NCBI GenBank assembly: GCA_965248535.1
Contig: CBDFJR010000005.1
Location: 1,888,001 to 1,952,000, forward strand
Length of the DNA stretch: 64,000 bases
Source of the DNA: Phormidesmis sp.
Lineage (GTDB): Bacteria > Cyanobacteriota > Cyanobacteriia > Leptolyngbyales > Leptolyngbyaceae
Reading direction: 5' to 3'
Part shown: positions 43,997 through 55,979 of the stretch, in pieces
Numbering within the stretch: the first letter of the stretch is position 1
How the letters are laid out: each line of letters starts with the position of its first letter
The notes under the pieces: model-generated
What the model was told of the DNA's origin: nothing
What the model saw: only the letters and a program-made list of their open reading frames with translations
Database searches by the model: none
Translations under genes and position numbers: made by a program

Positions 43997-45607
43997 TCAC
44001 CGACCCTCAGTTTTCAAAATATTGAGGGCGACGGCCTCGGCGATTTTGATGCCATCGATGCCCGCCGAGAGAATGCCCCCCGCATAGCCAGCCCCTTCGC
44101 CTGCGGGATAAAGTCCTTTGGTGTTGAGACTTTGACCATCGTCTTGACGCTTGATCCGAATCGGGGAAGACGTGCGAGTTTCAACGCCTGTCAACACCGC
44201 ATCATTCATCGCAAAGCCCTGGATCTGCTTGTCAAAAGCAGGTAGCGCTTCACGAATAGCGGCGATCGCATAGTCTGGCAAACTCGACCTCAAATCCCCC
44301 AGACGCACCCCCGGCGTATAAGACGGTCGCACGGTGCCTAAAATCTCGGAAGGACGATCAGCGATGAAATCTCCCACGAGTTGCCCCGGCGCTTCATAGG
44401 TGCCACCGCCTAACTCAAAGGCTCGCTCTTCTAAACGTCGTTGAAACTCAATGCCCGCTAGCGGATGACCGGGATAATCATCGGGCGTAATGCCGACCAC
44501 GATCGCGCTGTTGGCGTTGCGCTCATTGCGAGAATATTGGCTCATGCCATTGGTGACGACCCGCCCCGGCTCTGAGGTTGCCGCCACGACCAGCCCCCCC
44601 GGACACATACAAAAACTATAGACCGATCGCCCATTTGAGCAGTGGTGAACCAGCTTATAGTCAGCCGCCCCTAAAAGCCGATGCCCCGCCTGGTCACCAA
44701 ACCGACAGCGATCGATCAGGGCCTGCGGATGCTCGACTCGAAACCCGATCGAGAAGGGTTTGGCTTCGATATAAACGCCGCGATCGAACAACATCTCAAA
44801 GGTGTCTCTGGCACTGTGACCCACGGCGAGAACGATATGATCGCTGCGGAGATAGTCGCCGTTAGCGAGCGTAACTCCTCGCACCTGTCCCTGATCAATA
44901 TGCAGATCTTCGACGCGACTTTGAAAGTGGATTTCACCCCCCAAAGCTTCAATATTGGCGCGGATCTTTTCCACAATTCCTACTAGTTTAAAGGTGCCAA
45001 TGTGGGGTTTGTTGATATAGAGAATTTCTGGGGAGGCTCCGGCGTTAACCAGTTCAGTGAGCACTTTTCGCCCGTGATGCTGAGAGTCTTTGACCTGGCT
45101 GTAGAGTTTTCCATCTGAGAAGGTGCCTGCTCCGCCTTCGCCAAATTGGGCGTTAGACTCTGGGTTAAAGCCTTTTTTTCGCCAAAACCCAAAGGTGTCT
45201 GCGGTGCGCTCTTTGACGATTTTTCCGCGTTCGAGCACGATCGGGCAAAACCCCATTTGCGCCAACATCAAGGCCGCAAACAACCCACAAGGCCCCGTGC
45301 CAATCACGATCGGGCGAGTGGTCAAATGCTTTGGGGCTTGGGCAACCGGAGTGTAGCTCATGCTGGGCGTGACCCGCACATGAGGATCTTTTTTTAAGCG
45401 TTGCAGCAGCGACTTTTCGTGAGTCGTTTCTACATCTAGAATGTAAACCAGGACAATTTCTTCTTTTTTTCGCGCATCATAACTGCGCTTAAAAATTGAG
45501 TAGTTAGTTAACGCATTGGCTGGAATTTGTAGCTTTTTAAGAATGGCAGTCTTGATCTCGCTTTCAGGATGATCAAGGGGAAGTTTTACTTCGGTTAGTC
45601 GCAACAT
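43997..45607 (-). CDS. NAD(P)/FAD-dependent oxidoreductase (COG2509-like)
   Basis: 'GTGPCG', 'FGEGGAGTFSDGKL', 'FCMCPGG', 'GEGAGYAGGI'. Confidence 0.9.
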   Translation of the reverse strand: MLRLTEVKLPLDHPESEIKTAILKKLQIPANALTNYSIFKRSYDARKKEEIVLVYILDVETTHEKSLLQRLKKDPHVRVTPSMSYTPVAQAPKHLTTRPIVIGTGPCGLFAALMLAQMGFCPIVLERGKIVKERTADTFGFWRKKGFNPESNAQFGEGGAGTFSDGKLYSQVKDSQHHGRKVLTELVNAGASPEILYINKPHIGTFKLVGIVEKIRANIEALGGEIHFQSRVEDLHIDQGQVRGVTLANGDYLRSDHIVLAVGHSARDTFEMLFDRGVYIEAKPFSIGFRVEHPQALIDRCRFGDQAGHRLLGAADYKLVHHCSNGRSVYSFCMCPGGLVVAATSEPGRVVTNGMSQYSRNERNANSAIVVGITPDDYPGHPLAGIEFQRRLEERAFELGGGTYEAPGQLVGDFIADRPSEILGTVRPSYTPGVRLGDLRSSLPDYAIAAIREALPAFDKQIQGFAMNDAVLTGVETRTSSPIRIKRQDDGQSLNTKGLYPAGEGAGYAGGILSAGIDGIKIAEAVALNILKTEGR

Positions 45608-45745
45608 ACTCGATATCTTGAATGACCTCGACTAGGGCACGATCGGACGCGCTGGCAGCAGTCTTTCATTTTAGCTTGTGCGCCTAATCTTTCTAAAACA
45701 GAAACCCTGATCTATTATCGATCTTTAAACAGACCTAAACCTCTC

Positions 45746-47425
45746 ATGTCCTATTTCCCTGAGAATGCCTTAATTATTCAAAGCGATCGCTCTGTTCTCC
45801 TGGAAGTTCACTCGCCTAGAGCGAATGCGGCCCGAGAAGCGATCGCGCCCTTTACCGAACTCGTTAAAAGTCCTGAACACATTCACACTTATAAGATCAC
45901 GCCTCTCAGCGTGTGGAATGCACGAGCCGCCGGAATGCCCGTAGATGAGATGATCGCGGCTCTGCAAGATCACGCTAAATATCCCATGCCCGATGCCGTC
46001 ACCCAGGAAATTGAAGCTTTGGGCAAGCGGTATGGATTAACCGTGATTGAGCGATCGGACGATGAGATTCATCTCTTGCTGAGAACGGCTGATCTGCCCC
46101 TTGCGGAACTGTTGTCTCGCAACGATGATGTGGCTCCGCTGCTGGCAGAGCGTTTGAATGACTGCTTATTTCAAGTCGATGCCGGGTTTCGAGGGCTGCT
46201 CAAACAAGCGCTGTTAGCGGCAGGCTATCCGGCTGAAGATTTAGCGGGCTATGTGACGGGCGACGCTTTGACGATCGAGCTTCGGCGCGTTAGTCGATCG
46301 GGCGCACCGTTTGAGTTGCGCGATTATCAAGAAGCCGCCGCCGATGCGTTTTATCAGGCGGGTCGGGTGCAAGGTGGAAGCGGCGTGATCGTGCTGCCCT
46401 GCGGGGCTGGCAAGACGATGGTGGGCATGGCGGCGATGCTGGCGGTGCAAGAAAACACGCTGGTGCTGACGAGTAGCCTCACCTCGGTTCGGCAATGGCG
46501 ACGCGAATTGCTCGATAAAACCACGCTTTCAGAAGACTCGATCGCTGAATACAGTGGCGAGAGCAAAAACACGGCTCCGGTTACGCTAGCGACCTATCAG
46601 ATTCTCACCTATCGGTCTCAAAAAGATCAGCAGCAGCCTCACTTTGAGTTGTTCAACGCCCGATCGTGGGGCTTAATTATCTACGATGAAGTTCACCTAT
46701 TGCCTGCTCCGGTGTTTCGGGCTACGGCCGAGCTTCAAGCCCGTCGTCGGTTAGGATTGACTGCCACGCTGATCCGGGAAGATGGGCGAGAAGGAGACGT
46801 GTTTGCGCTGATCGGGCCAAAACGCTATGACGTGCCCTGGCGAGAATTGGAAGGACAGGGATTCATCGCCGCCGCCGAATGCACCGAGATTCGGGTGCCG
46901 CAGGATGCAGAAGAGCAAATGAATTATGCGATCGCGCCCAAACGCCAACAGTTTCGCATCGCCGCCGAAAATCCGCGCAAGTTGACAATGATTAAAGAGT
47001 TGCTAGAAAAAGAAGCCGGACATCGGATTTTGATCATTGGCGAATATATTGAACAATTAGAAAAAGTTGCCCACTTAACAAGATTGCCTTTGATCACGGG
47101 TAAAACTTCTCAACGGGAACGCGATCGCCGCTATGAACAGTTTCGCCATCAGCAAATTGATGGATTGATCCTGTCGCGAGTGGGCAACTTTGCGCTAGAT
47201 TTGCCCGATGCTGACGTGCTGATCCAAATATCTGGAAAGTATGGATCTCGTCAAGAAGAAGCCCAACGTTTGGGGCGAGTGTTGCGTCCCAAATCGGATG
47301 GTCGCGTTGCCCAGTTTTATTCGCTGGTGTCGCTGCGAACCTGTGAAGAAGAATTTGCCCGTCATCGGCAGCTATTTTTAGCCGAGCAAGGCTACAGTTA
47401 TCAGATTCAAGTTTTAGAAGAATAG
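45746..47425 (+). CDS. XPB/Ssl2-like DNA repair helicase
   Basis: 'ELVKSPEHIHTY', 'LPCGAGKT', 'DEVH', 'TAT', 'QEEAQRLGRVLRPK'. Confidence 0.92.
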   Translation: MSYFPENALIIQSDRSVLLEVHSPRANAAREAIAPFTELVKSPEHIHTYKITPLSVWNARAAGMPVDEMIAALQDHAKYPMPDAVTQEIEALGKRYGLTVIERSDDEIHLLLRTADLPLAELLSRNDDVAPLLAERLNDCLFQVDAGFRGLLKQALLAAGYPAEDLAGYVTGDALTIELRRVSRSGAPFELRDYQEAAADAFYQAGRVQGGSGVIVLPCGAGKTMVGMAAMLAVQENTLVLTSSLTSVRQWRRELLDKTTLSEDSIAEYSGESKNTAPVTLATYQILTYRSQKDQQQPHFELFNARSWGLIIYDEVHLLPAPVFRATAELQARRRLGLTATLIREDGREGDVFALIGPKRYDVPWRELEGQGFIAAAECTEIRVPQDAEEQMNYAIAPKRQQFRIAAENPRKLTMIKELLEKEAGHRILIIGEYIEQLEKVAHLTRLPLITGKTSQRERDRRYEQFRHQQIDGLILSRVGNFALDLPDADVLIQISGKYGSRQEEAQRLGRVLRPKSDGRVAQFYSLVSLRTCEEEFARHRQLFLAEQGYSYQIQVLEE

Positions 47426-47430
47426 TGGCA

Positions 47431-49083
47431 TCAAAACGGAGTCTCTAGAGTTAGCCGCAGTGCTTGTTTAGACTGCGGATGCTCAAAGCTCAGTTCTCTC
47501 GCGTGAAGACATAAGCGATCGCTACTCCCCTTTCCATAAAGACGATCGCCCACAATCGATACCCCCAAACCCGCTACTGCGTGGACTCGAATTTGATGCG
47601 TCCGTCCGGTGACTGGCGAGAATTCCATTCGCGTTAAATTTCCGGTTCGCACCAGCACTTTGAAGTGAGTCACGCTGGGCTTTCCGCGCTGACGATCGAC
47701 GGTTTGAACAGGTCGATTTTGCGGGTCTCCCCACAGGGGCAGGTCAATCACTCCCCGGTCTTGCGCCACCGCCCCGTTGAGCATTGCTTCGTAGATTTTG
47801 TGAACTTGACGCTGCTGAAATTGCTGACTGAGGTGGCGATAGGTTTGACGATCGCGGGCCAAGACCAAAATTCCAGAAGTGTCTTGATCGAGCCGATGCA
47901 CAGCCATCAGAGAGTCGCCATCCGGTAATAAATGCCGAAGCTGACTTAAAACGCTGTCTTGAGTATCCCGATAACGACCCGGAACTGAGAGCAATCCAGA
48001 GGGTTTGTTGACCACAATTAGCCATTGATCTTCATAGAGAATCGGTAGTGGTTGAGTGATGGGTACGATCGCTTCTTTTTGCGGCAATCCTGATAGCAAA
48101 AAGCCCATTAATGGCTGACAGCGCTCTAGACAAGCACCATAAAATTCTCCCTGAATCTTATGTTCACTGATTGAATCAGCCCCGTACCAAAACTCAGCCA
48201 TTGCTAACGGTTTGAGATGACAAGTTGCTGCATAATGCAACAGTTTTGGAGCACAGCAATCTCCGGTTCCCGTTGGCATTGAGCCGCTAGGCATTAACTG
48301 CTGAAGCGACAGAGATTTTCCAGCAAAATTAGTCAGTGAGTAATGGGCGTGCATCTGAGCTTGAAGTTGACGAGACACCTCTTTACGCTGTTGTTTTAAT
48401 TGCTGAATCCGGCTATCTGCTTGCTCAAGGAAAGATTTAAGCGGCTGCAATTCTGCATCTCGTTGACGTTTGAAGTGTCGGCGATCGCGGCCATCTTGAC
48501 GGCTTTGATCATCCAGTTTTTCAAGCTCTATTTCTAACATTTCTCCCGCAAGAAATTCTAGAAGCCTCTGACGTTGATGTTGTCGTTCCTCCTTGAGTTG
48601 ATGGTGCTGAAAAGTAATGTGCTGGAATTGAGTTTGAGATGCTTTTAGTTGCAATTCATAGCGCGATCGCTCCGGCAAGTTCTGTAAACCAATTAGTTCT
48701 TGCTTAATCGATTCTAAAATTGCTAAAGCATGAGCCTCTTCAAAAGCAACGCGATCGCGTCCTGGAATTGGCGGCACCCATCCCTCAACGATACCATTTC
48801 CGTTCAGCAACCCAGAAAACGCCTTGAGAACTCGCTGTTCGCCGCTAGAAGTCTCAACCAGCAGCACACCATACATTTTGCCTTCTTGAAACGTGTCCAG
48901 CGATCGCATCAAGCCTTTGGCGATCGCTTCTACAAACAAAGTGCGCGGCAGTCGCAATCGTTGACTACTTTGAGGGCAATTACCCTCATACCAATAAGTA
49001 GCTAAATCGTTGACTATGCAATTCTGTTCAACAAAATCTAAAGGAATATGAAGACTTACCTCATTAGATCCAGGGGTCATCAT
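47431..49083 (-). CDS. RluA-family pseudouridine synthase, long form
   Basis: 'NKPSGLLSVPG', 'HRLDQDTSG', 'TGRTHQIRVH', 'LHA'. Confidence 0.92.
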   Translation of the reverse strand: MMTPGSNEVSLHIPLDFVEQNCIVNDLATYWYEGNCPQSSQRLRLPRTLFVEAIAKGLMRSLDTFQEGKMYGVLLVETSSGEQRVLKAFSGLLNGNGIVEGWVPPIPGRDRVAFEEAHALAILESIKQELIGLQNLPERSRYELQLKASQTQFQHITFQHHQLKEERQHQRQRLLEFLAGEMLEIELEKLDDQSRQDGRDRRHFKRQRDAELQPLKSFLEQADSRIQQLKQQRKEVSRQLQAQMHAHYSLTNFAGKSLSLQQLMPSGSMPTGTGDCCAPKLLHYAATCHLKPLAMAEFWYGADSISEHKIQGEFYGACLERCQPLMGFLLSGLPQKEAIVPITQPLPILYEDQWLIVVNKPSGLLSVPGRYRDTQDSVLSQLRHLLPDGDSLMAVHRLDQDTSGILVLARDRQTYRHLSQQFQQRQVHKIYEAMLNGAVAQDRGVIDLPLWGDPQNRPVQTVDRQRGKPSVTHFKVLVRTGNLTRMEFSPVTGRTHQIRVHAVAGLGVSIVGDRLYGKGSSDRLCLHARELSFEHPQSKQALRLTLETPF

Positions 49084-50035
49084 CGTCTTCTAAATCTTCA
49101 TCTTTCAAGGGTTGATTTTGAGAATTGGTGGATGGTTGAATAAGCGCCTCATTCTCCCGATCCTCTAATTTGTCAGTAGAAGATTGGACACTTATTTTAT
49201 CTACCACAGGTTGATCCTGAACATTCACCGTTGGCTGAATAAAATCTTCATCGTCCCAATCTTCTAGAGGGTCAAGTTCAGTTGATTCAGGAGGCTCGAT
49301 CGTGACTTTCGATTCATCCCATTGCTCAACCACATCATAGGTTCTTTCTTTGACTTGTTCCGCTAAAGCCTGAGCTTTTTCTCTGGCTTGTTCTGCCAAG
49401 ATCTGCGCCCGTTCTCTGGCGGTTCCTGTAGCAGTTTTAGCTTGGTTAAATAATGATCGTAGCTCTTGAGTCACCTGACTTTTTTCGTCTTGCAAGAAGT
49501 CCGTCATTTTCGTCAGCTTCTCTTGAATGCCTTCTCGATAAAGGGCAAACGATCGCACCGCCTCTTCAGACACTAACACTCGTCTATTTCCAATCTTCAA
49601 AACATAATTAGATGGCAATAAATAGGCGCTTCCGGTGATGCCACTCCAATCACTCGTGATGAATAAATAATGCTCAATTTCTCCGGTTCTCAGATTGAAC
49701 AAATAATCGATAATTTTCCCAGCTTTATTTCCGTCATCTGTCCAAACTTCCCAATTCACCAATGTCTCAAGCTGCCGAACTTTCTCAACATCGGTGTCAA
49801 CGGGTCTAGAGTTAACGAGAATGCCATTGCCCCCGATCGTGTGCAGTTGATCCAAATTAAACGCCGTTTTTTTCTGCCCTAGCCAGCCCGACTTGCAGAT
49901 AAACCCCAACACTCGATGCACTTTGGGATACATCCACAGCACTTCAACCTGCCCTAACTCCGCCATCGTGGAGCGATTGAGGACAAACTGATTCAACAAT
50001 TCACTCTGTCTAACAACCTCTGGTTGCTGCGCCAT
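49064..50035 (-). CDS. PRC-barrel domain protein
   Basis: Two PRC-like repeats and an acidic tail ending 'DDDPWI'. Confidence 0.75.
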   Translation of the reverse strand: MAQQPEVVRQSELLNQFVLNRSTMAELGQVEVLWMYPKVHRVLGFICKSGWLGQKKTAFNLDQLHTIGGNGILVNSRPVDTDVEKVRQLETLVNWEVWTDDGNKAGKIIDYLFNLRTGEIEHYLFITSDWSGITGSAYLLPSNYVLKIGNRRVLVSEEAVRSFALYREGIQEKLTKMTDFLQDEKSQVTQELRSLFNQAKTATGTARERAQILAEQAREKAQALAEQVKERTYDVVEQWDESKVTIEPPESTELDPLEDWDDEDFIQPTVNVQDQPVVDKISVQSSTDKLEDRENEALIQPSTNSQNQPLKDEDLEDDDDPWI

Positions 50036-50113
50036 ACAAATTTAGACACCGTAAAGTCTTGCCTCTAGTGTATCTTGCCACCCCTAAAATTAAGACGCTA
50101 GATGTCAAAATGG

Positions 50114-50143
50114 TTGACAGAGCCTGTTCTGATTTGGCATACT
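50114..50143 (+). promoter_or_regulatory. Sigma70-type promoter of rplU-rpmA
   Basis: TTGACA-N18-CATACT with TG upstream of the -10. Confidence 0.55.
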
Positions 50144-50241
50144 AGTTGACTGGCTGTCTATCCCTGCTCGGATCAGGTCGGACACTCGAAAAGCGGGATT
50201 TTTCCGCTACCTGTACGGCAACTTTATCAAGGACAATTTTC

Positions 50242-50598
50242 ATGACTGCATACGCAATTATCGAAGCGAGTGGCACTCAGATGCGCGTAGAGCCAGGCCG
50301 GTTCTATGATGTCAATCGCCTCGCAGATGAAGTCGATTCACAACTGACGCTCGATCGGGTTCTGTTTATCAGAAACGAAGGCGACATCACCGTGGGCCAA
50401 CCTCTGGTGGAAGGTGCAACGGTTCAGGCAACGGTGCTCAGACATCTGCGAGGTCGCAAGATTATCGTCTACAAGATGCAGCCCAAGAAAAAGACCCGCA
50501 AAAAGCAAGGTCACCGTCAAGAACTGACTCGCATTATGATCGACTCCATCAGCCTCAACGGGGCGGTGGTTGATTCTAAAGAGCAACCCAGAGGCTAA
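50242..50598 (+). CDS. rplU: 50S ribosomal protein L21
   Basis: 'YAIIEASG', '[14 protein letters not shown]'. Confidence 0.97.
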
Positions 50599-50653
50599 AC
50601 CTCTCTGGGGTGAAGGCTTTTAACTGAAATCTACAGAAACTGTTGAGGAAATT

Positions 50654-50947
50654 ATGGCTCACAAGAAAGGTACAGGCAGTACTCGTAACGGTCGCGACTC
50701 TAACGCTCAACGTCTAGGAGTCAAGCGCTACGGCGGGCAAGTCGTTCTCGCGGGCAACATTCTAGTTCGTCAGCGTGGCACCAAAATTCATCCCGGCAAC
50801 AATGTCGGTCGCGGCAGCGATGACACCCTGTTTGCGCTCATCCCTGGCGTTGTCACCTTTGAACCGATGACCAAAGGTCGCAAAAAAGTCAGTGTCTACG
50901 CAAAAGTTGAAGCGGCTCAACCTGTTGAAGTGGCTCAACCTGTTTAA
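50654..50947 (+). CDS. rpmA: 50S ribosomal protein L27
   Basis: '[16 protein letters not shown]'. Confidence 0.99.
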
Positions 50948-50968
50948 TCGACTTCTAAATAGATTGAT

Positions 50969-50995
50969 AAGCTGCTCACAAGGGGCAGCTTTTTT
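50969..50995 (+). terminator. Rho-independent terminator after rpmA
   Basis: AAGCTGCTC-loop-GGGCAGCTT followed by a T run. Confidence 0.8.
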
Positions 50996-51035
50996 ATGAG
51001 GTGACTGGCAGATTATTCTCCCAGAATTTAGTCAT

Positions 51036-51071
51036 CCTTTACAGTTCGTAATCACTCTAGTGAGCGATCGC
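51036..51071 (+). repeat. 36-bp direct repeat, left copy
   Basis: CCTTTACAGTTCGTAATCACTCTAGTGAGCGATCGC, identical to 54894-54929. Confidence 0.95.
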
Positions 51072-51275
51072 TAGAGATGCTGCACTACGGTAGAGGACAA
51101 AACGAGTGGGTTCGGCATCAAGAATACTGGCGATTAAGGCGACAGCTTGGGTTTCTTGCTCAAAAGCTTGGCGCGCCAATTGTGTAGCCTTCTCTAGAGC
51201 ACCTCTTAAACGAGCGACTACTGCGGCTTCGGCTAAATCCATTGCTTGTTGGTGGAGCACTTGAATCTGGCTCAT
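51057..51275 (-). pseudogene. Cassette-borne helical hypothetical protein, probably 3'-truncated
   Basis: Begins 46 bp past the attC core; its last codons and stop lie inside the 36-bp repeat. Confidence 0.55.
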
Positions 51276-51320
51276 TGGGGTATGCCATTTTGAACTCTTT
51301 GAGACATGGATTGAATGGCG

Positions 51321-52100
51321 ATCTAACGGCTAAAGTGAGCGGCGGCAAGAGGACTAGAACGAAGCGCAAAGGCTATGTATCGTCCGCTCCACTATGTGTC
51401 CGCCCAGCATGGGCGTGAACTAATGGGGTGAAAGTCCCCTGTCGGAGAACCAACGTCCAAAGGAACCCGAAAGTTCCGAGTGACGACAACGACTAGCTTA
51501 AGGCAAGGGCGTTTCCGCGAGGAAGGGTCTGAAGGAAGCTGGAGGCAAACCTGCGAACTGACGGACAGAAACGTCATAGAAGGCTAAGATTCCCGTGGCG
51601 AGTGAGCACAACATCACAAAGCCTTTTGGTTCAGGGAACATAGTAAATGACGCGGTTGTGCAGGGACATTCACGGTCTTATCTGGGGAGATCTGCTCAAA
51701 GGGCGGTTTGGGATTTTATGGGAGTCGGACTGAGGGCGATTTGGAAACGAATCGACAACCCACCGAACCCTACGGAAACCTAAGCAGCGCGTCTAGCGGC
51801 AACGCTAGAGGTAATTGAGCAGAAGTCAGCAGAAGCCATAGTAGCCAAATGCTCATCGTCATGGGTGAGACAGGGTGAAGGGCTGAACGTCAGAGAGCAG
51901 GGAGGAGCCGTAAAGCTCGACGGGGCGATGAACCCGGATGGGGGAGCTAACTTGTCGGCGCTTAATTGCGTCACCAGCCCTGGACATCAATTCTTTGGAG
52001 TTGAAGGGTCTAAACCTCTTTGAGGAAGCGCCCCGTGCGGAGCCGCACGCGGGGTGCTGTGGGAGCGGGGGGAGAAAATCCCCTTGCTACCCGATTAGAC
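51321..52100 (-). other. Integron attC site (about 82-84 bp when rejoined), split by a group II intron
   Basis: Minus strand rejoined: R'' GTCTAAC, L'' AGTGGAGCGG (one extra base), L' CCGCTCACT, R' GTTAGAT. Confidence 0.85.
51398..52095 (+). mobile_element. ORF-less group IIC (attC-targeting) intron, about 698 nt
   Basis: 5' GTCCGCCCAGCATGGGCG; domain V GAAGCGCCCCGTGCGGAGCCGCACGCGGGGTGCTGT; domain VI ending ACCCGAT; no RT ORF; 5' end may be 51398 or 51400. Confidence 0.9.
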
Positions 52101-52149
52101 GCCGTCAGTTACGCAGAATTCCCTGAGTACATGCACGGTATTGGTGCTA

Positions 52150-52818
52150 TTAATCAATAATTACCCTAAAGGTCAAATTGATTCTCGGTTCTACCTTTCT
52201 AGATGTTTTTGGAATTTGATGCTGCCAGAAATGCTGAGTCTCACCAGCCATCAGAAGAAAACTACCATGTGTTAGCTCAACTTCCGCCTTCAGATCTTGG
52301 TCTTGCCTATGCCGAAACATAAATCTTCTTGCTCCTCCGAAACTGACAGAGCCAATTACAGGATTTTCACCTAATTCTGGCTCTGCATCTGTGTGCCAAG
52401 AGATACCATCATTTCCATGACGATAGAGATTCAGCAAAACGCTGTTGAACTCAACCTCTGAAACCTCTTCAATACGCTGCTTCACTTGCAGCAATGTTGG
52501 TGTCCAAGGTTCAGGATCGAGGTGAATACCTGAGAAGGTGTACGATTTATCCTGATCACCATACCAAGCAGTCTTTCGCGGCAAATTGATCTCTTTGCCA
52601 TAAAGCTTCATCTTGTCTTGCCGCCAGTTAATCTCATTCAGCAAGATCTGGAAAATTTCGTTGCTTCTTTGCGAGTCGAAAAAGTTTCGGTAGAAAATAA
52701 CCTTTGCGTCTGGCATAGGTAGGACTTCTCTGACTAATTCATCCTCGGCACTTGTGACCGACTCAAAACCGGAGAACAAGTCCCCTTGAGAAACATTTAC
52801 GGCAGACTTCCTTCTCAT
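52150..52818 (-). CDS. AlkB-family (ALKBH2/3-like) 2OG-Fe(II) dioxygenase
   Basis: 'PRKTAWYGD', 'FNSVLLNLYR.GND...WHTDAE', 'WQHQIPK', 'RINLTFR'. Confidence 0.92.
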   Translation of the reverse strand: MRRKSAVNVSQGDLFSGFESVTSAEDELVREVLPMPDAKVIFYRNFFDSQRSNEIFQILLNEINWRQDKMKLYGKEINLPRKTAWYGDQDKSYTFSGIHLDPEPWTPTLLQVKQRIEEVSEVEFNSVLLNLYRHGNDGISWHTDAEPELGENPVIGSVSFGGARRFMFRHRQDQDLKAEVELTHGSFLLMAGETQHFWQHQIPKTSRKVEPRINLTFRVIID

Positions 52819-52830
52819 AAAGACTTTTCC

Positions 52831-53637
52831 TCAGCTTTGAATCAGGTTCACAGTGAATTGCCTCTCGCATACACCTATTCTACGCTCTTCATACCTTCCG
52901 GTTTTGAAGTAGAACACTTTTTTATAAATCGGCTCCTCAGAAACCACTGAGTTGTAAATTCGACCGGACTGCGAGAACAAGTCATAGAAGTTACTTAATC
53001 TATATCTACGATCGTTATCTGGACTTGTGCAGATAAATCGATTTAAGCCTCGAAAGGAACCAATTATCAACTCGTGTAATTCGTCTAAACTAAACGCTTC
53101 TACATCAATAATGTTTGAGAAAAGGTGAACCTTGATGCTATCCATATCAGAAATCAAATCGCTAGGTTGCAAGTCATCTATGTACTTACTAATTCTACGT
53201 ATGGTAGGAGTAGCATAGGCTTCAGATTGAAGCATTTGACAAGCGAGGTTGTAACCGCGCTCCAACGCTGTAAGCGAAGGCTCTACAAGCGTAATCGAGA
53301 CTACTTCGGGCTTGAGCTTACTCTCGATGAAGTAGTCAATCAAAACACAGGTCGCCAATGCTTGACCACATCCCCAGTCAATGATCTCCAATTTTTTGCC
53401 GTCAGTATAGTGAAAATTAGTTGAGGCAAAGGCTGCATAAAGTTTGTGAAAATGATGCCCACCGTAAAACGCTACATACTGGTCGCATTTTGCCTCGCTA
53501 TCCAACACTGCCGTACCATTAGCTAAAGCACTGAGAACATTTTGAACATTTTGTATATTCTTGCACTTTTCTATGCAGGGCTTGTAGATGCCATCGATAA
53601 ATCTCATGATCCCTTCTTCTGAGTTCGAGATGTTCAT
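52831..53637 (-). CDS. Class I SAM-dependent methyltransferase-like protein
   Basis: 'IIDWGCGQA' motif I, 'TLVEPS', 'HLFSNIIDV'. Confidence 0.6.
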   Translation of the reverse strand: MNISNSEEGIMRFIDGIYKPCIEKCKNIQNVQNVLSALANGTAVLDSEAKCDQYVAFYGGHHFHKLYAAFASTNFHYTDGKKLEIIDWGCGQALATCVLIDYFIESKLKPEVVSITLVEPSLTALERGYNLACQMLQSEAYATPTIRRISKYIDDLQPSDLISDMDSIKVHLFSNIIDVEAFSLDELHELIIGSFRGLNRFICTSPDNDRRYRLSNFYDLFSQSGRIYNSVVSEEPIYKKVFYFKTGRYEERRIGVCERQFTVNLIQS

Positions 53638-53786
53638 GTAGAAGGCTCAAAAAATGTAAGACTTCTATCGGCTAGACTGCCCAAGCTACCTTCTAGATTA
53701 AACAATTACTTCAGTGATGGTTCTCCAGATTCTCAAATGTCAGGATTGCACAAGGCTGAAGTGGCAATCTCACCAACAACTCAGGC

Positions 53787-53950
53787 GTATAACTACTATT
53801 TCTGCCGTTTGAACTCCTATCAAACAGGATAAATGCCTCTCTCAGAGAAATTATGCCGTATGGAAACCGGATAACTCCCATTTTTTTAGGAATCATCCTG
53901 AATTCTCACAGGATAACTCTCCACTTTCGGGTAATTATACGGAATGGCGC
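53787..53950 (-). other. Cassette entry core site (GTTATAC) plus three 42-bp-periodic dyad sites
   Basis: GGATAA at 53827/53869/53911; inverted T(T/C)AT.C at 53851/53893/53935. Confidence 0.7.
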
Positions 53951-54072
53951 TCAGGTTTTTCGATTCTAAGGGAGCCGCGAGTAAATTGTCTCGTTCCGAT
54001 GAATCAGTCATGGCGCTGAGTCGATCGAGTCCCTGCCGTTGCTCGACTGGAACATAAATTAGGGAGAGTTTA

Positions 54073-54125
54073 CGATCGCCCCCCCTCTTCCACAAAACCC
54101 GATCGCTTCCCTCCCCCACAAAAAT
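54073..54125. repeat. Two imperfect 27-bp tandem units (CGATCGC...CCACAAAA)
   Basis: Seen directly. Confidence 0.5.
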
Positions 54126-54394
54126 CACCATTCCAAAAAACAAAAAACTCTAGTACAATACACCGCAGTGATGGAGTTATGCCCCGAAGCCTGATCTACC
54201 AAATCAGACTCCGAGGACTTCCATCCCTAGTTACCGACTAGTAACTTAGGAGGCGTTCATGATTGTACACCGACAGCTTTGCTATGGGATCTTGAAAGGC
54301 TGGAATCAAGATCCTGCATACAGATTTCCCCCCAACCCAATGTCTGAGAGATCCGTGTTTTTGTCCTCTTTGAATTAATCGAGAGGACAAAACT

Positions 54395-54766
54395 ATGGGA
54401 GTTAGGACGATCGTGCCTAGCTCGATTTCGTTCACCGTTGAGTTACGTTGCTCAATCGAAAAGCGTTATCGAGTCAGTGTTATTTTGGATTTGCAAGAGC
54501 GTTATATTTTCATTCCCTCTGGTGTTATCTCAGACATTAGTGATGTCATTGAAGAGTTTGTGTCTCAGTTAAGTGAGATCGCGTCTAATCAACTGGCATT
54601 CTTGAAATGGGACGGTACGAGTGATTTAACGACGGAGTATCAGATTGTTCGAGTGTTGCCGGGATATCAAGTTGAGCGATCGTTAGCAAAGTTCAACATT
54701 GTCATCGGCAGTGGTTCACTGATTCAAGTGGAGGAGTTGCACGACAAAATCATCATTCAACTCTAG
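54395..54766 (+). CDS. Hypothetical protein
   Basis: 123-aa ORF with GAGGA RBS, inside the island. Confidence 0.6.
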   Translation: MGVRTIVPSSISFTVELRCSIEKRYRVSVILDLQERYIFIPSGVISDISDVIEEFVSQLSEIASNQLAFLKWDGTSDLTTEYQIVRVLPGYQVERSLAKFNIVIGSGSLIQVEELHDKIIIQL

Positions 54767-54893
54767 ATAAAGGGAACGATCGCGAAATTACCTTTTTGAA
54801 GGCTGACCGAAATTAAGCGATCGTTCCTTAATCATCTGAAGGGCTAACATTTTAGATTGAATAGGATGAATCCTCGATCTCATTCCTAATCAC

Positions 54894-54929
54894 CCTTTAC
54901 AGTTCGTAATCACTCTAGTGAGCGATCGC
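54894..54929 (+). repeat. 36-bp direct repeat, right copy
   Basis: Identical to 51036-51071. Confidence 0.95.
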
Positions 54930-54989
54930 ACTCCTGAAAGTTTTAGACTTTATAAGATATCGCCAACATTAGCCAGCTATATCAGCCCT

Positions 54990-55979
54990 ATGTTTCCAAC
55001 TCACCGCCCTCGCCGCCTGCGTGCTCATCCTCAACTGCGCCGGATGGTGCGTGAGACTGTGTTGACTACCAGTGACTTGATCTATCCCTTGTTTGCGGTT
55101 CCGGGTGAGGCGATCGCCAAAGAAGTTCGCTCAATGCCGGGGGTGTTTCAACTCTCGATCGACAAAATCGTTGAAGAAGCTAAAGAAGTCTACGATTTGG
55201 GCATTCCGTCAATTATTTTGTTTGGCATTCCGGCGGATAAAGACACGGATGCAACGGGTGCCTGGCACGATTGCGGCATGATTCAAAAAGCGGCAACGGC
55301 CGTGAAGGAAGCGGTTCCCGATCTGATCGTGATTGCAGACACTTGCCTGTGTGAATATACGCCCCACGGTCACTGTGGTTATCTCGAAGTCGGCGACTTA
55401 TCCGGGCGAGTGCTCAACGACCCAACGTTAGAACTGCTCAAAAAAACGGCGGTTTCTCAAGCCAAAGCAGGTGCTGATATCATTGCGCCTTCTGGCATGA
55501 TGGATGGCTTTGTGCAAGCGGTGCGACAGGGGCTAGACGAAGCAGGATTTCACGATACGCCGATCATGTCTTATGCGGCAAAATATGCGTCCGCCTATTA
55601 TGGGCCATTTCGAGATGCAGCCGAATCGGCTCCTCAGTTTGGCGATCGCCGCACCTACCAAATGGACCCCGGCAACGCTCGTGAAGCGATTAAAGAAATC
55701 GAACTCGATATTGCCGAAGGCGCAGATATGCTGATGGTCAAGCCAGCGCTGTCTTATATGGATGTGATTTATCGCGTCAAGGAAGCGACGAATTTGCCTG
55801 TCGCGGCCTATAACGTGTCGGGCGAATATGCGATGGTAAAGGCCGCTGCCCTCAACGGCTGGATCGATGAAGAGCGCATCGTTCTGGAAACGCTGACCAG
55901 CTTTAAACGGGCAGGTGCAGATTTAATTCTTACCTACCATGCTAAAGATGCGGCTCGTTGGTTGGCTGCTCAGGCTTAA
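54990..55979 (+). CDS. hemB: Porphobilinogen synthase
   Basis: '[11 protein letters not shown]', '[12 protein letters not shown]', 'MVKPA'. Confidence 0.98.

Follow-up and report, generated by a model that had tools for sequence, protein, structure and literature searches.

What are the three regularly spaced dyads that lie beside a cassette junction in the genome of this Phormidesmis sp., with no linked integrase next to them? The window, that is, the whole 64-kb stretch of DNA analysed here, corresponds to C5:1888001-1952000 of the genome (designated G000; 5.03 Mb in 5 contigs), and the three units described in the first-pass annotation are present in it exactly as quoted, with the form CnGnATAA-N18-TTATnCnG, an exact 42-bp period, and starts at 53825, 53867, and 53909. 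Dyad 1 (53825-53858) reads CAGGATAA-N18-TTATGCCG, dyad 2 (53867-53900) reads CCGGATAA-N18-TCATCCTG, and dyad 3 (53909-53942) reads CAGGATAA-N18-TTATACGG, the right arm of the last containing a minus-strand TATAAT hexamer; none of the three is assigned a strand. The period claimed for the array is borne out by a scan for the pattern CNGNATAA-N18-TTATNCNG with at most one mismatch, which gave these three spans in the 64-kb window against 0.13 matches expected (0 of 100 shuffles reached three), and by the strongest self-shift of 53794-53960, which was 42 bp (identity, 0.47; shuffle 95th percentile, 0.38). The array was not reported by Tandem Repeats Finder, because the spacers are too unlike and the arms alone are similar, and an Rfam search over 53000-55000 returned nothing except a chance snoRNA match (E = 0.96). 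Toward the cassettes, the dyads are preceded by a constant core region (53794-53824, no strand), near-invariant in 25 copies and carrying the inverted repeat I2, which comprises the 4-bp spacer TACT, an L-box-like ATTTCTGCCG (53798-53807) that may be read as an L box, and a small palindrome CCGTTTGA..TCAAACAGG. A promoter-like site directed toward the cassettes, TCGAAA-18-TATAAT (53934-53963, minus strand; 10/12, a match to the consensus only), overlaps dyad 3 and is a candidate Pc; three promoter-like sites were found in the region against 2.2 expected, a count that is not significant.

The junction core GTTATAC (53793-53787, minus strand; GTATAAC on the plus strand) is present beside the array, as had been noticed, and the edge of a repeated module falls there. 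Its proposed role in cassette entry agrees with the finding that variable cassette DNA meets constant platform DNA at this position, and we infer that the crossover G|TT takes place between 53793 and 53792. Alignment of 25 copies from six species showed that the constant sequence starts at ...AAC|TACTATTTCTGCCG; among the 24 flanks available (a contig end truncates the remaining copy), position 1 of the 7-base core at the outer edge is R in 24/24, the following three positions are Y in 19/24, 18/24, and 24/24, and the full RYYYAAC core is found in 13/24. The outer edge of the module, which is sharp, thus adjoins an RYYYAAC-type core. Genes terminated by attC, whose presence beside such sites the first-pass annotation had proposed to test, are found on the cassette side of all nine module copies in the genome, the attC-ended cassettes running away from the outer edge in each and the ORFs there being mostly oriented away from the module. 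Within 9 kb of the nine modules and of both intI genes of the genome, one to three attC-profile matches each are located on the outer side with the expected strand orientation, and no attC-profile match was found on the inner side of any of them; the profile, an nhmmer profile of our own built from seven sites flanking group II intron copies and distinct from the model of IntegronFinder, gave 47 genome matches at E up to 10. Furthermore, the core is the exact starting point of one cassette family both beside two type-B modules and beside a different, intI-1 platform, as site-specific insertion at each edge would produce.

In the window, the cassettes with attC run leftward on the minus strand. 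Cassette 1 contains a 268-aa ORF without a family match (52831-53637, minus strand) as its first gene and an AlkB-like 2OG-Fe(II) oxygenase of 222 aa (52150-52818, minus strand; PF13532, E = 9.8e-38) as its second. Distal to the attC, a 72-aa ORF without a Pfam family (51057-51275, minus strand), which enters the duplicated segment described below, looks like a second cassette lacking an attC of its own; the window island gives one match to the seven-site profile, and the other copies give two or three. Searches of Pfam and NCBIfam assigned no family to the 268-aa, 123-aa, 39-codon, 85-aa, 61-aa, 72-aa, and 65-aa ORFs. The attC of cassette 1 has a distal part at 51322-51396 (plus strand; nhmmer E = 5.5e-13, together with the alignment of intron flanks) that is read on the bottom strand, with its R' GTTAGAT at 51344-51338 on the minus strand, and a proximal part at 52099-52149 (minus strand) that comprises the R'' side, in which GTCTAA adjoins the intron, together with the spacer following the stop codon of the AlkB-like gene. 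The intron is a group II intron of ~720 bp without a long ORF (51381-52098, plus strand), situated inside the attC and antisense to the cassette genes, with Rfam matches to RF02001 (124 bits), RF01998 (60 bits), and RF00029 (49 bits). As the intron splits the site, no attC was detected on the minus strand of 45000-53800 in a scan requiring strict R''/R' boxes and folding. The intron has eight near-full copies in the genome, nearly all located 1-5 kb from a platform copy or intI on the cassette side, and its placement in the bottom strand of an attC is that described for group IIC-attC introns, which are inserted opposite to the direction of cassette transcription (PMC3001079).

The island that carries the cassettes and the platform (51072-54850) ends on the right in an AAC-type box, GGGCTAAC (54843-54850, plus strand); four sister species have no such island between rpmA and hemB and so provide the empty site. 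A segment of ~79 bp from the rpmA-hemB intergenic region is duplicated on either side of the island, with the left copy at 50993-51071 and the right copy at 54851-54929 (neither being assigned a strand); the latter enters the hemB start codon at 54918, and 36 bp of the two copies are identical (51036-51071 and 54894-54929).

The ~170-bp module (53787-53960), in which the dyads occupy bases 36-156, lies between the crossover core (53793/53792) and the start codon of an intI remnant (53999). It occurs nine times in the genome itself and in 6 of the 40 other genomes searched, namely five of the seven others of the genus and one of another genus (7/41 when the present genome is counted). The profile scan that had been suggested for the units was run on the present genome, and its matches are confined to cassette-junction modules: the profile from 75 aligned units gave 27 forward matches in 5.03 Mb, three per module in the nine modules and none elsewhere. 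Likewise, all 18 genome matches to the exact dyad pattern, and 24 of the 29 with at most one mismatch, are inside the modules (reversed-pattern control, nine matches). A blastn search of the region against the genome further revealed a multi-copy unit of ~980 bp (53790-54766), represented by eight long copies, six of which are intact, one has a small deletion, and one has a 1.26-kb insertion, and by nine short copies starting near 54072-54121; in addition, the first ~150 bp occur alone in a solo copy (C2:2140k), and there is a 47-bp fragment. The long copy with the insertion (L025; C2:1675655-1676916) is split by ~1.26 kb bounded by the inverted repeats GGGCACCTCGA...TCGAGGTGCCC, probably an insertion sequence. 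Among the short copies, one in the C5:1266469 region directly follows a tRNA gene, and two (C2:1670292 and C5:797958) are preceded by repeat units of the intI-1 type with the intI gene itself absent.

A multi-copy module with a sharp edge also recalls a MITE or the end of an IS, and the first-pass annotation had named membership in such an element as an objection to an attI-like landing pad. The location of the array in a multi-copy ~980-bp unit touches on this objection; nevertheless, the unit is an integron platform and no MITE or IS. No terminal inverted repeat was found in it, flanking direct repeats are absent from 16 of the 17 unit copies and present only at the window copy, and only its outer edge is sharp, the inner side continuing into intI or its remnant.

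The remnant consists of a start codon and ~19 codons (53999-54055, plus strand) with a stop at codon 7 (54017-54019), and its homology ends near 54056. Its translation, MNQSWR*VDRVPAVARLEH, corresponds to MNQPLRLVDQIRAVARLEH of the intI on G004:C1009 of a sister species, where an intact gene for a 319-aa protein (TIGR02249, 439.9 bits) is situated 207 nt past the junction of the same module. The present genome has two integron integrases on contig C2 (TIGR02249, 466 and 467 bits; cut-off, 265) and no intI of the G004 type was found in it; a tblastn search with IntI-1 against 53600-54400 gave nothing, the remnant being visible only against the G004-type gene. The linked integrase is therefore missing here because intI was deleted and a remnant left, and, since the eight long copies share a common deletion junction, the platform was multiplied after the loss of intI. 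The earlier suggestion of an attI-like pad without a linked integrase is thus upheld as regards the pad, as the module precedes an intact intI in the sister species, whereas a design independent of an integrase is contradicted by the 19-codon remnant. A 230-bp block that starts at GGCATAA|C is identical between the two intI genes of the genome and is followed in each by its own, differing array of units (C2:1132543-1132943 and C2:161066-161465). From these results we favor, with a probability of about 60%, the reading of the three dyads as repeats that form an array in the attI/intI-promoter region of a chromosomal integron from which intI has been deleted.

Similar arrays are seen upstream of other intI genes. 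All nine intI genes of the genus have upstream DNA with a best self-shift of 39-42 bp, which in seven of them is above the shuffle 95th percentile, and the units upstream of intI-1 align by eye base for base with those of the window. Across the class, TIGR02249 was matched in 69 of 201 sampled genomes at E of 1e-60 or better, in 60 of them above the family cut-off, and the upstream regions of the best 29 loci (L060-L088) were analysed, 27 of which have at least 150 bp of upstream DNA. A significant self-shift was detected in 13 of these 27, in all 13 at 39-42 bp, and no significant shift of 39-42 bp was found in 27 intragenic, 27 downstream, and 19 far-upstream control regions. Placed in register, the class arrays have arms of the GATAAC...GTTATC or ATCTAAC...GTTAGAT type and a junction RYYYAAC|TATnTATT; the arrays elsewhere consist of three to five inverted pairs spanning about 120-200 bp and stop 40-50 bp before the intI start codon. 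In the literature searched, outside subscription journals, we found no paper on Phormidesmis integrons or on repeat arrays in cyanobacterial attI.

It is improbable, in the light of this distribution, that the array is a non-functional relic, made up of tandem attC-derived scars (mini-cassettes or slipped simple-site duplications) from past recombination at attI. Such an origin would account for units whose limits, if taken at ...ATAA|C, resemble a cassette boundary, for arms that resemble R''/R' boxes, and for the fast turnover of arm sequences between platforms. However, conservation over 25 copies in six species is far higher in the arms than in the spacers, and the 39-42-bp period is held in 13 of 27 unrelated cyanobacterial intI loci at this position only, a period that neutral scars would not hold.

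The conservation of the arms themselves gives an indication of what kind of site they form. In 75 units, each position of C-n-G-n-A-T-A-A and of its mirror T-T-A-T-n-C-n-G is kept in 66-74 (88-99%), with variable spacers. In a count by pairs over the 25 copies, 19-25 keep the mirror match at six of the eight arm positions, and 13-19 lack pairing at positions 2 and 4; the covariation score was 0.052 as compared with 0.059 after shuffling, 424 of 500 shuffles being at least as high. Mirror conservation without covariation points to a dyad-symmetric protein site on double-stranded DNA and not to a hairpin. Reading the dyads as single-stranded hairpins (pseudo-attC) or as a resolvase-type res site, which together with the MITE or IS end discussed above is the least probable explanation of those weighed here, would draw on the imperfect palindrome in each unit and on the resemblance of three dyads to a res site; it is opposed by the lack of compensatory changes and by arm positions 2 and 4, which are mostly mismatched, by 34-bp units that have no L boxes, by the absence of any attC-profile match in the module, and by adjacent ORFs in which no serine recombinase or transposase family was found, the intI remnant being the sole recombinase sequence among them.

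A comparison with the attC sites of the same genome suggests which protein may recognize the dyads. Among the R'' 9-mers of attC ending in AAC, of which CGGCATAAC is the commonest, C1 and G3 occur together in 12 of 24, as against 6.5% of all nnnnnTAAC, and the dyad arms appear to be copies of the extended R-box of the genome's own attC sites. The ATTTCTGCCG box beside the crossover, 4 bp from AAC, is similar to the right arms, and in a second type of platform (G002:C38) the box is by eye similar to the arms of that same platform. The first-pass annotation had seen neither RYYYAAC nor attC arms here. It was correct in that the units fail the definition of attC; the arms are nevertheless degenerate RYYYAAC/(G/A)TTRRRY-like boxes, and the view that they are unlike integron cores had to be given up. 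As IntI must recognize the R-boxes of attC that the arms resemble, it is most likely, as far as sequence likeness can tell, that the array binds several IntI monomers at the dyad arms. Several features nonetheless count against this assignment: most right arms start with ATT or TTT and not with the GTT of a true core (G in 8/75), the arms differ between platforms with similar IntI and do not cleanly track the IntI clade, and the half-sites are spaced by 26 bp within a dyad and by 16 bp between dyads, for which we know of no matching characterized IntI site.

These points bear on the alternative that the dyads are operators of a dedicated transcription factor or nucleoid protein, distinct from IntI, which sets the activity of the intI and cassette promoters, the likeness of the arms to R-boxes being either a coincidence or a means of competing with IntI. 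In its favor, a dimeric DNA-binding protein would leave this kind of mirror conservation with no covariation, the arrays overlap the promoter region, ending shortly before the intI start codon, the TATAAT hexamer inside dyad 3 faces the cassettes, and the arrays persist in eight copies without intI. We still consider this alternative unlikely, because the arm sequences vary widely across platforms and genera with the architecture kept, unlike those expected for a single regulator with a fixed motif, and this variation fits the loose tolerance of IntI for RYYYAAC. Besides, no regulator gene is linked, and a cyanobacterial LexA-box consensus has no match in 53780-54010.

A further candidate for a dyad-binding protein is encoded next to the platform. 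The core unit common to all 17 copies starts with a C/A-rich stretch followed by a conserved leader (54072-54258, plus strand). Upstream of the 123-aa ORF, the leader sequence at 54170-54378 (plus strand) has two stems that are invariant and loops that vary between copies, had no Rfam match, and looks like a structured cis-regulatory RNA. The 39-codon frame within it (54259-54378, plus strand) is conserved at the nucleotide level with no excess at third positions, and is probably an RNA or regulatory element and not a protein. It is followed by the multi-copy 123-aa ORF (54395-54766, plus strand), which among the genomes searched is confined to the genus (7/7 sister genomes, with 4-21 matches each, and 0/33 genomes of other genera). 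This ORF is intact in 16 of the 17 copies of the present genome and, as judged from its third-codon-position diversity (0.226 versus 0.083 and 0.034), is under purifying selection. The 39-codon frame and the 123-aa ORF follow intI in six of the seven genus loci with downstream DNA, and in the window they now occupy the position of intI. The AlphaFold2 model of the 123-aa protein had a pLDDT of 35.8 from the single sequence and of 91.1 with an alignment; no convincing structural match was obtained for it (best Foldseek E, 0.08; best VIA-align Z, 4.4), nor any usable match in the ESM Atlas. Two distant matches, in proteins of 2642 and 394 aa, look spurious or of low complexity and were set aside.

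The association of the gene with intI, its purifying selection, and its retention in every intI-deleted platform could suggest that the 123-aa protein binds the dyads as a platform-specific accessory or autoregulatory factor. We regard this as very improbable, as the module occurs without the gene (in the solo copy at C2:2140k, and in genus g3, which is without the protein), periodic arrays are class-wide and the protein, in the genera searched, turned up in this one alone, and the confident model, though of a fold that could be matched to no known one, contains no recognizable DNA-binding fold.

At the other end of the unit, a near-perfect hairpin, GTTAGGGAG-N20-33-CTCCCTAAC, is located ~10 bp past the stop codon of the 123-aa ORF and is absent from the window copy. 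It occurs at nine genome sites, only at unit ends (C2:374832-374875, C5:2447970-2448012, and seven more), and homology between copies ends directly after its AAC. This hairpin was considered as an attC and rejected, its GTT..AAC order being wrong and its stem near-perfect, and it is read as the end of the 123-aa unit.

Returning to the preferred reading, namely an attI repeat array left after deletion of intI, we see about even odds for the following scheme of how IntI would be loaded onto it, which is drawn from sequence features. Each dyad would consist of two extended sequences of the R-box type in inverted orientation, CnGnATAA(C) and (A/G)TTATnCnG, and these arms could be occupied on double-stranded DNA by several IntI monomers; the 42-bp phasing, equivalent to four helical turns, would make successive dyads face the same side of the helix. 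The bound IntI may help attI to synapse with the folded attC, a role that DR1 and DR2 have in attI1, and may also control, by repression or activation, the divergent promoters located in the same 200 bp. In the window, IntI would have to act in trans, contig C2 with its two intact intI genes being the source; such use of IntI-1 or IntI-2 is uncertain, because the genome lacks a G004-type intI and the two proteins are only 55% identical to the G004 protein, as measured over IntI-1. We propose tentatively, and with considerable doubt, the wider view that phased 40-42-bp dyads which load an IntI multimer are a shared architecture of cyanobacterial attI and that orphan platforms are served in trans. 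The eight platforms without intI would then stay active docking sites, each with its own cassettes and a 123-aa companion gene, and their attI sites would form a dispersed network, in place of a single array, for one or two integrases to act on.

Several features by which an attI region is recognized are found at these loci: the site adjoins the 5' end of intI, the crossover is G|TT, the attC cassettes have one orientation, and a cassette is shared between platforms. The AAC core, the constant ~30 bp, and the 40-42-bp phased array of core-like dyads may thus represent a class-wide signature of attI, which would permit attI to be annotated in cyanobacterial genomes and decayed integrons to be separated from other clusters of attC. 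The 170-bp module would offer a defined substrate for the assembly of IntI on double-stranded attI, and the multi-copy orphan platforms suggest that cassette capture may be spread across many chromosomal sites served in trans.

The res sites of Tn3-family serine resolvases contain three dyad-symmetric subsites in about 120 bp, and the array resembles them in this respect; it differs from them in the lack of a linked resolvase, the equal spacing of the dyads, the integron-core-like arms, and the location at a cassette junction. With attC it shares arms that resemble R''/R' boxes, here in inverted order with AAC...(G/A)TT facing inward. An attC, also called a 59-base element, is however an imperfectly palindromic R''-L''...L'-R' sequence of ~57-141 nt that folds, whereas the present units are 34 bp in length, have neither L boxes nor a pairing constraint, and are not placed at the 3' end of a cassette.

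The closest parallel is attI1, in which two extra IntI-binding repeats are described as favoring attI x attC recombination (PMC8946536). As in attI1, the site has the cassette crossover core on one side and the 5' end of intI on the other, and extra core-like copies accompany the simple site, integrase-binding in attI1 and putatively so here. Unlike DR1 and DR2, which are two direct repeats, the array is composed of three inverted pairs, an arrangement that differs from DR-type direct repeats, and it may have an analogous function in spite of the inverted order. It is further distinguished from attI1 by the strict 40-42-bp period, the length of ~120-200 bp, the arms that copy the extended R-box of attC, and the lack of intI in the window copy. 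The same source treats it as an open question why certain integrases depend on accessory sites or host factors (PMC8946536), and attI is stated to be unknown for most integrons and beyond the search capability of IntegronFinder (PMC4889954).

Finally, the locus is comparable to a CALIN or a decayed chromosomal integron in that cassettes and an attC lie without a neighboring intI and with a short intI remnant nearby; intI pseudogenes were reported near 15 of 279 CALINs (Cury et al., PMC4889954). A CALIN, or cluster of attC sites lacking an integron integrase, comprises two or more attC; the window island has a single attC-profile match. It departs from a CALIN in keeping a conserved attI platform that has been multiplied to eight long copies, each with different cassettes, all sharing one deletion junction, and with the conserved 123-aa gene at the former position of intI. 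CALINs, some of them with intI pseudogenes, are thus already known (PMC4889954); new here is the phased dyad array in attI, which, being class-wide, may make cyanobacterial attI recognizable and testable.
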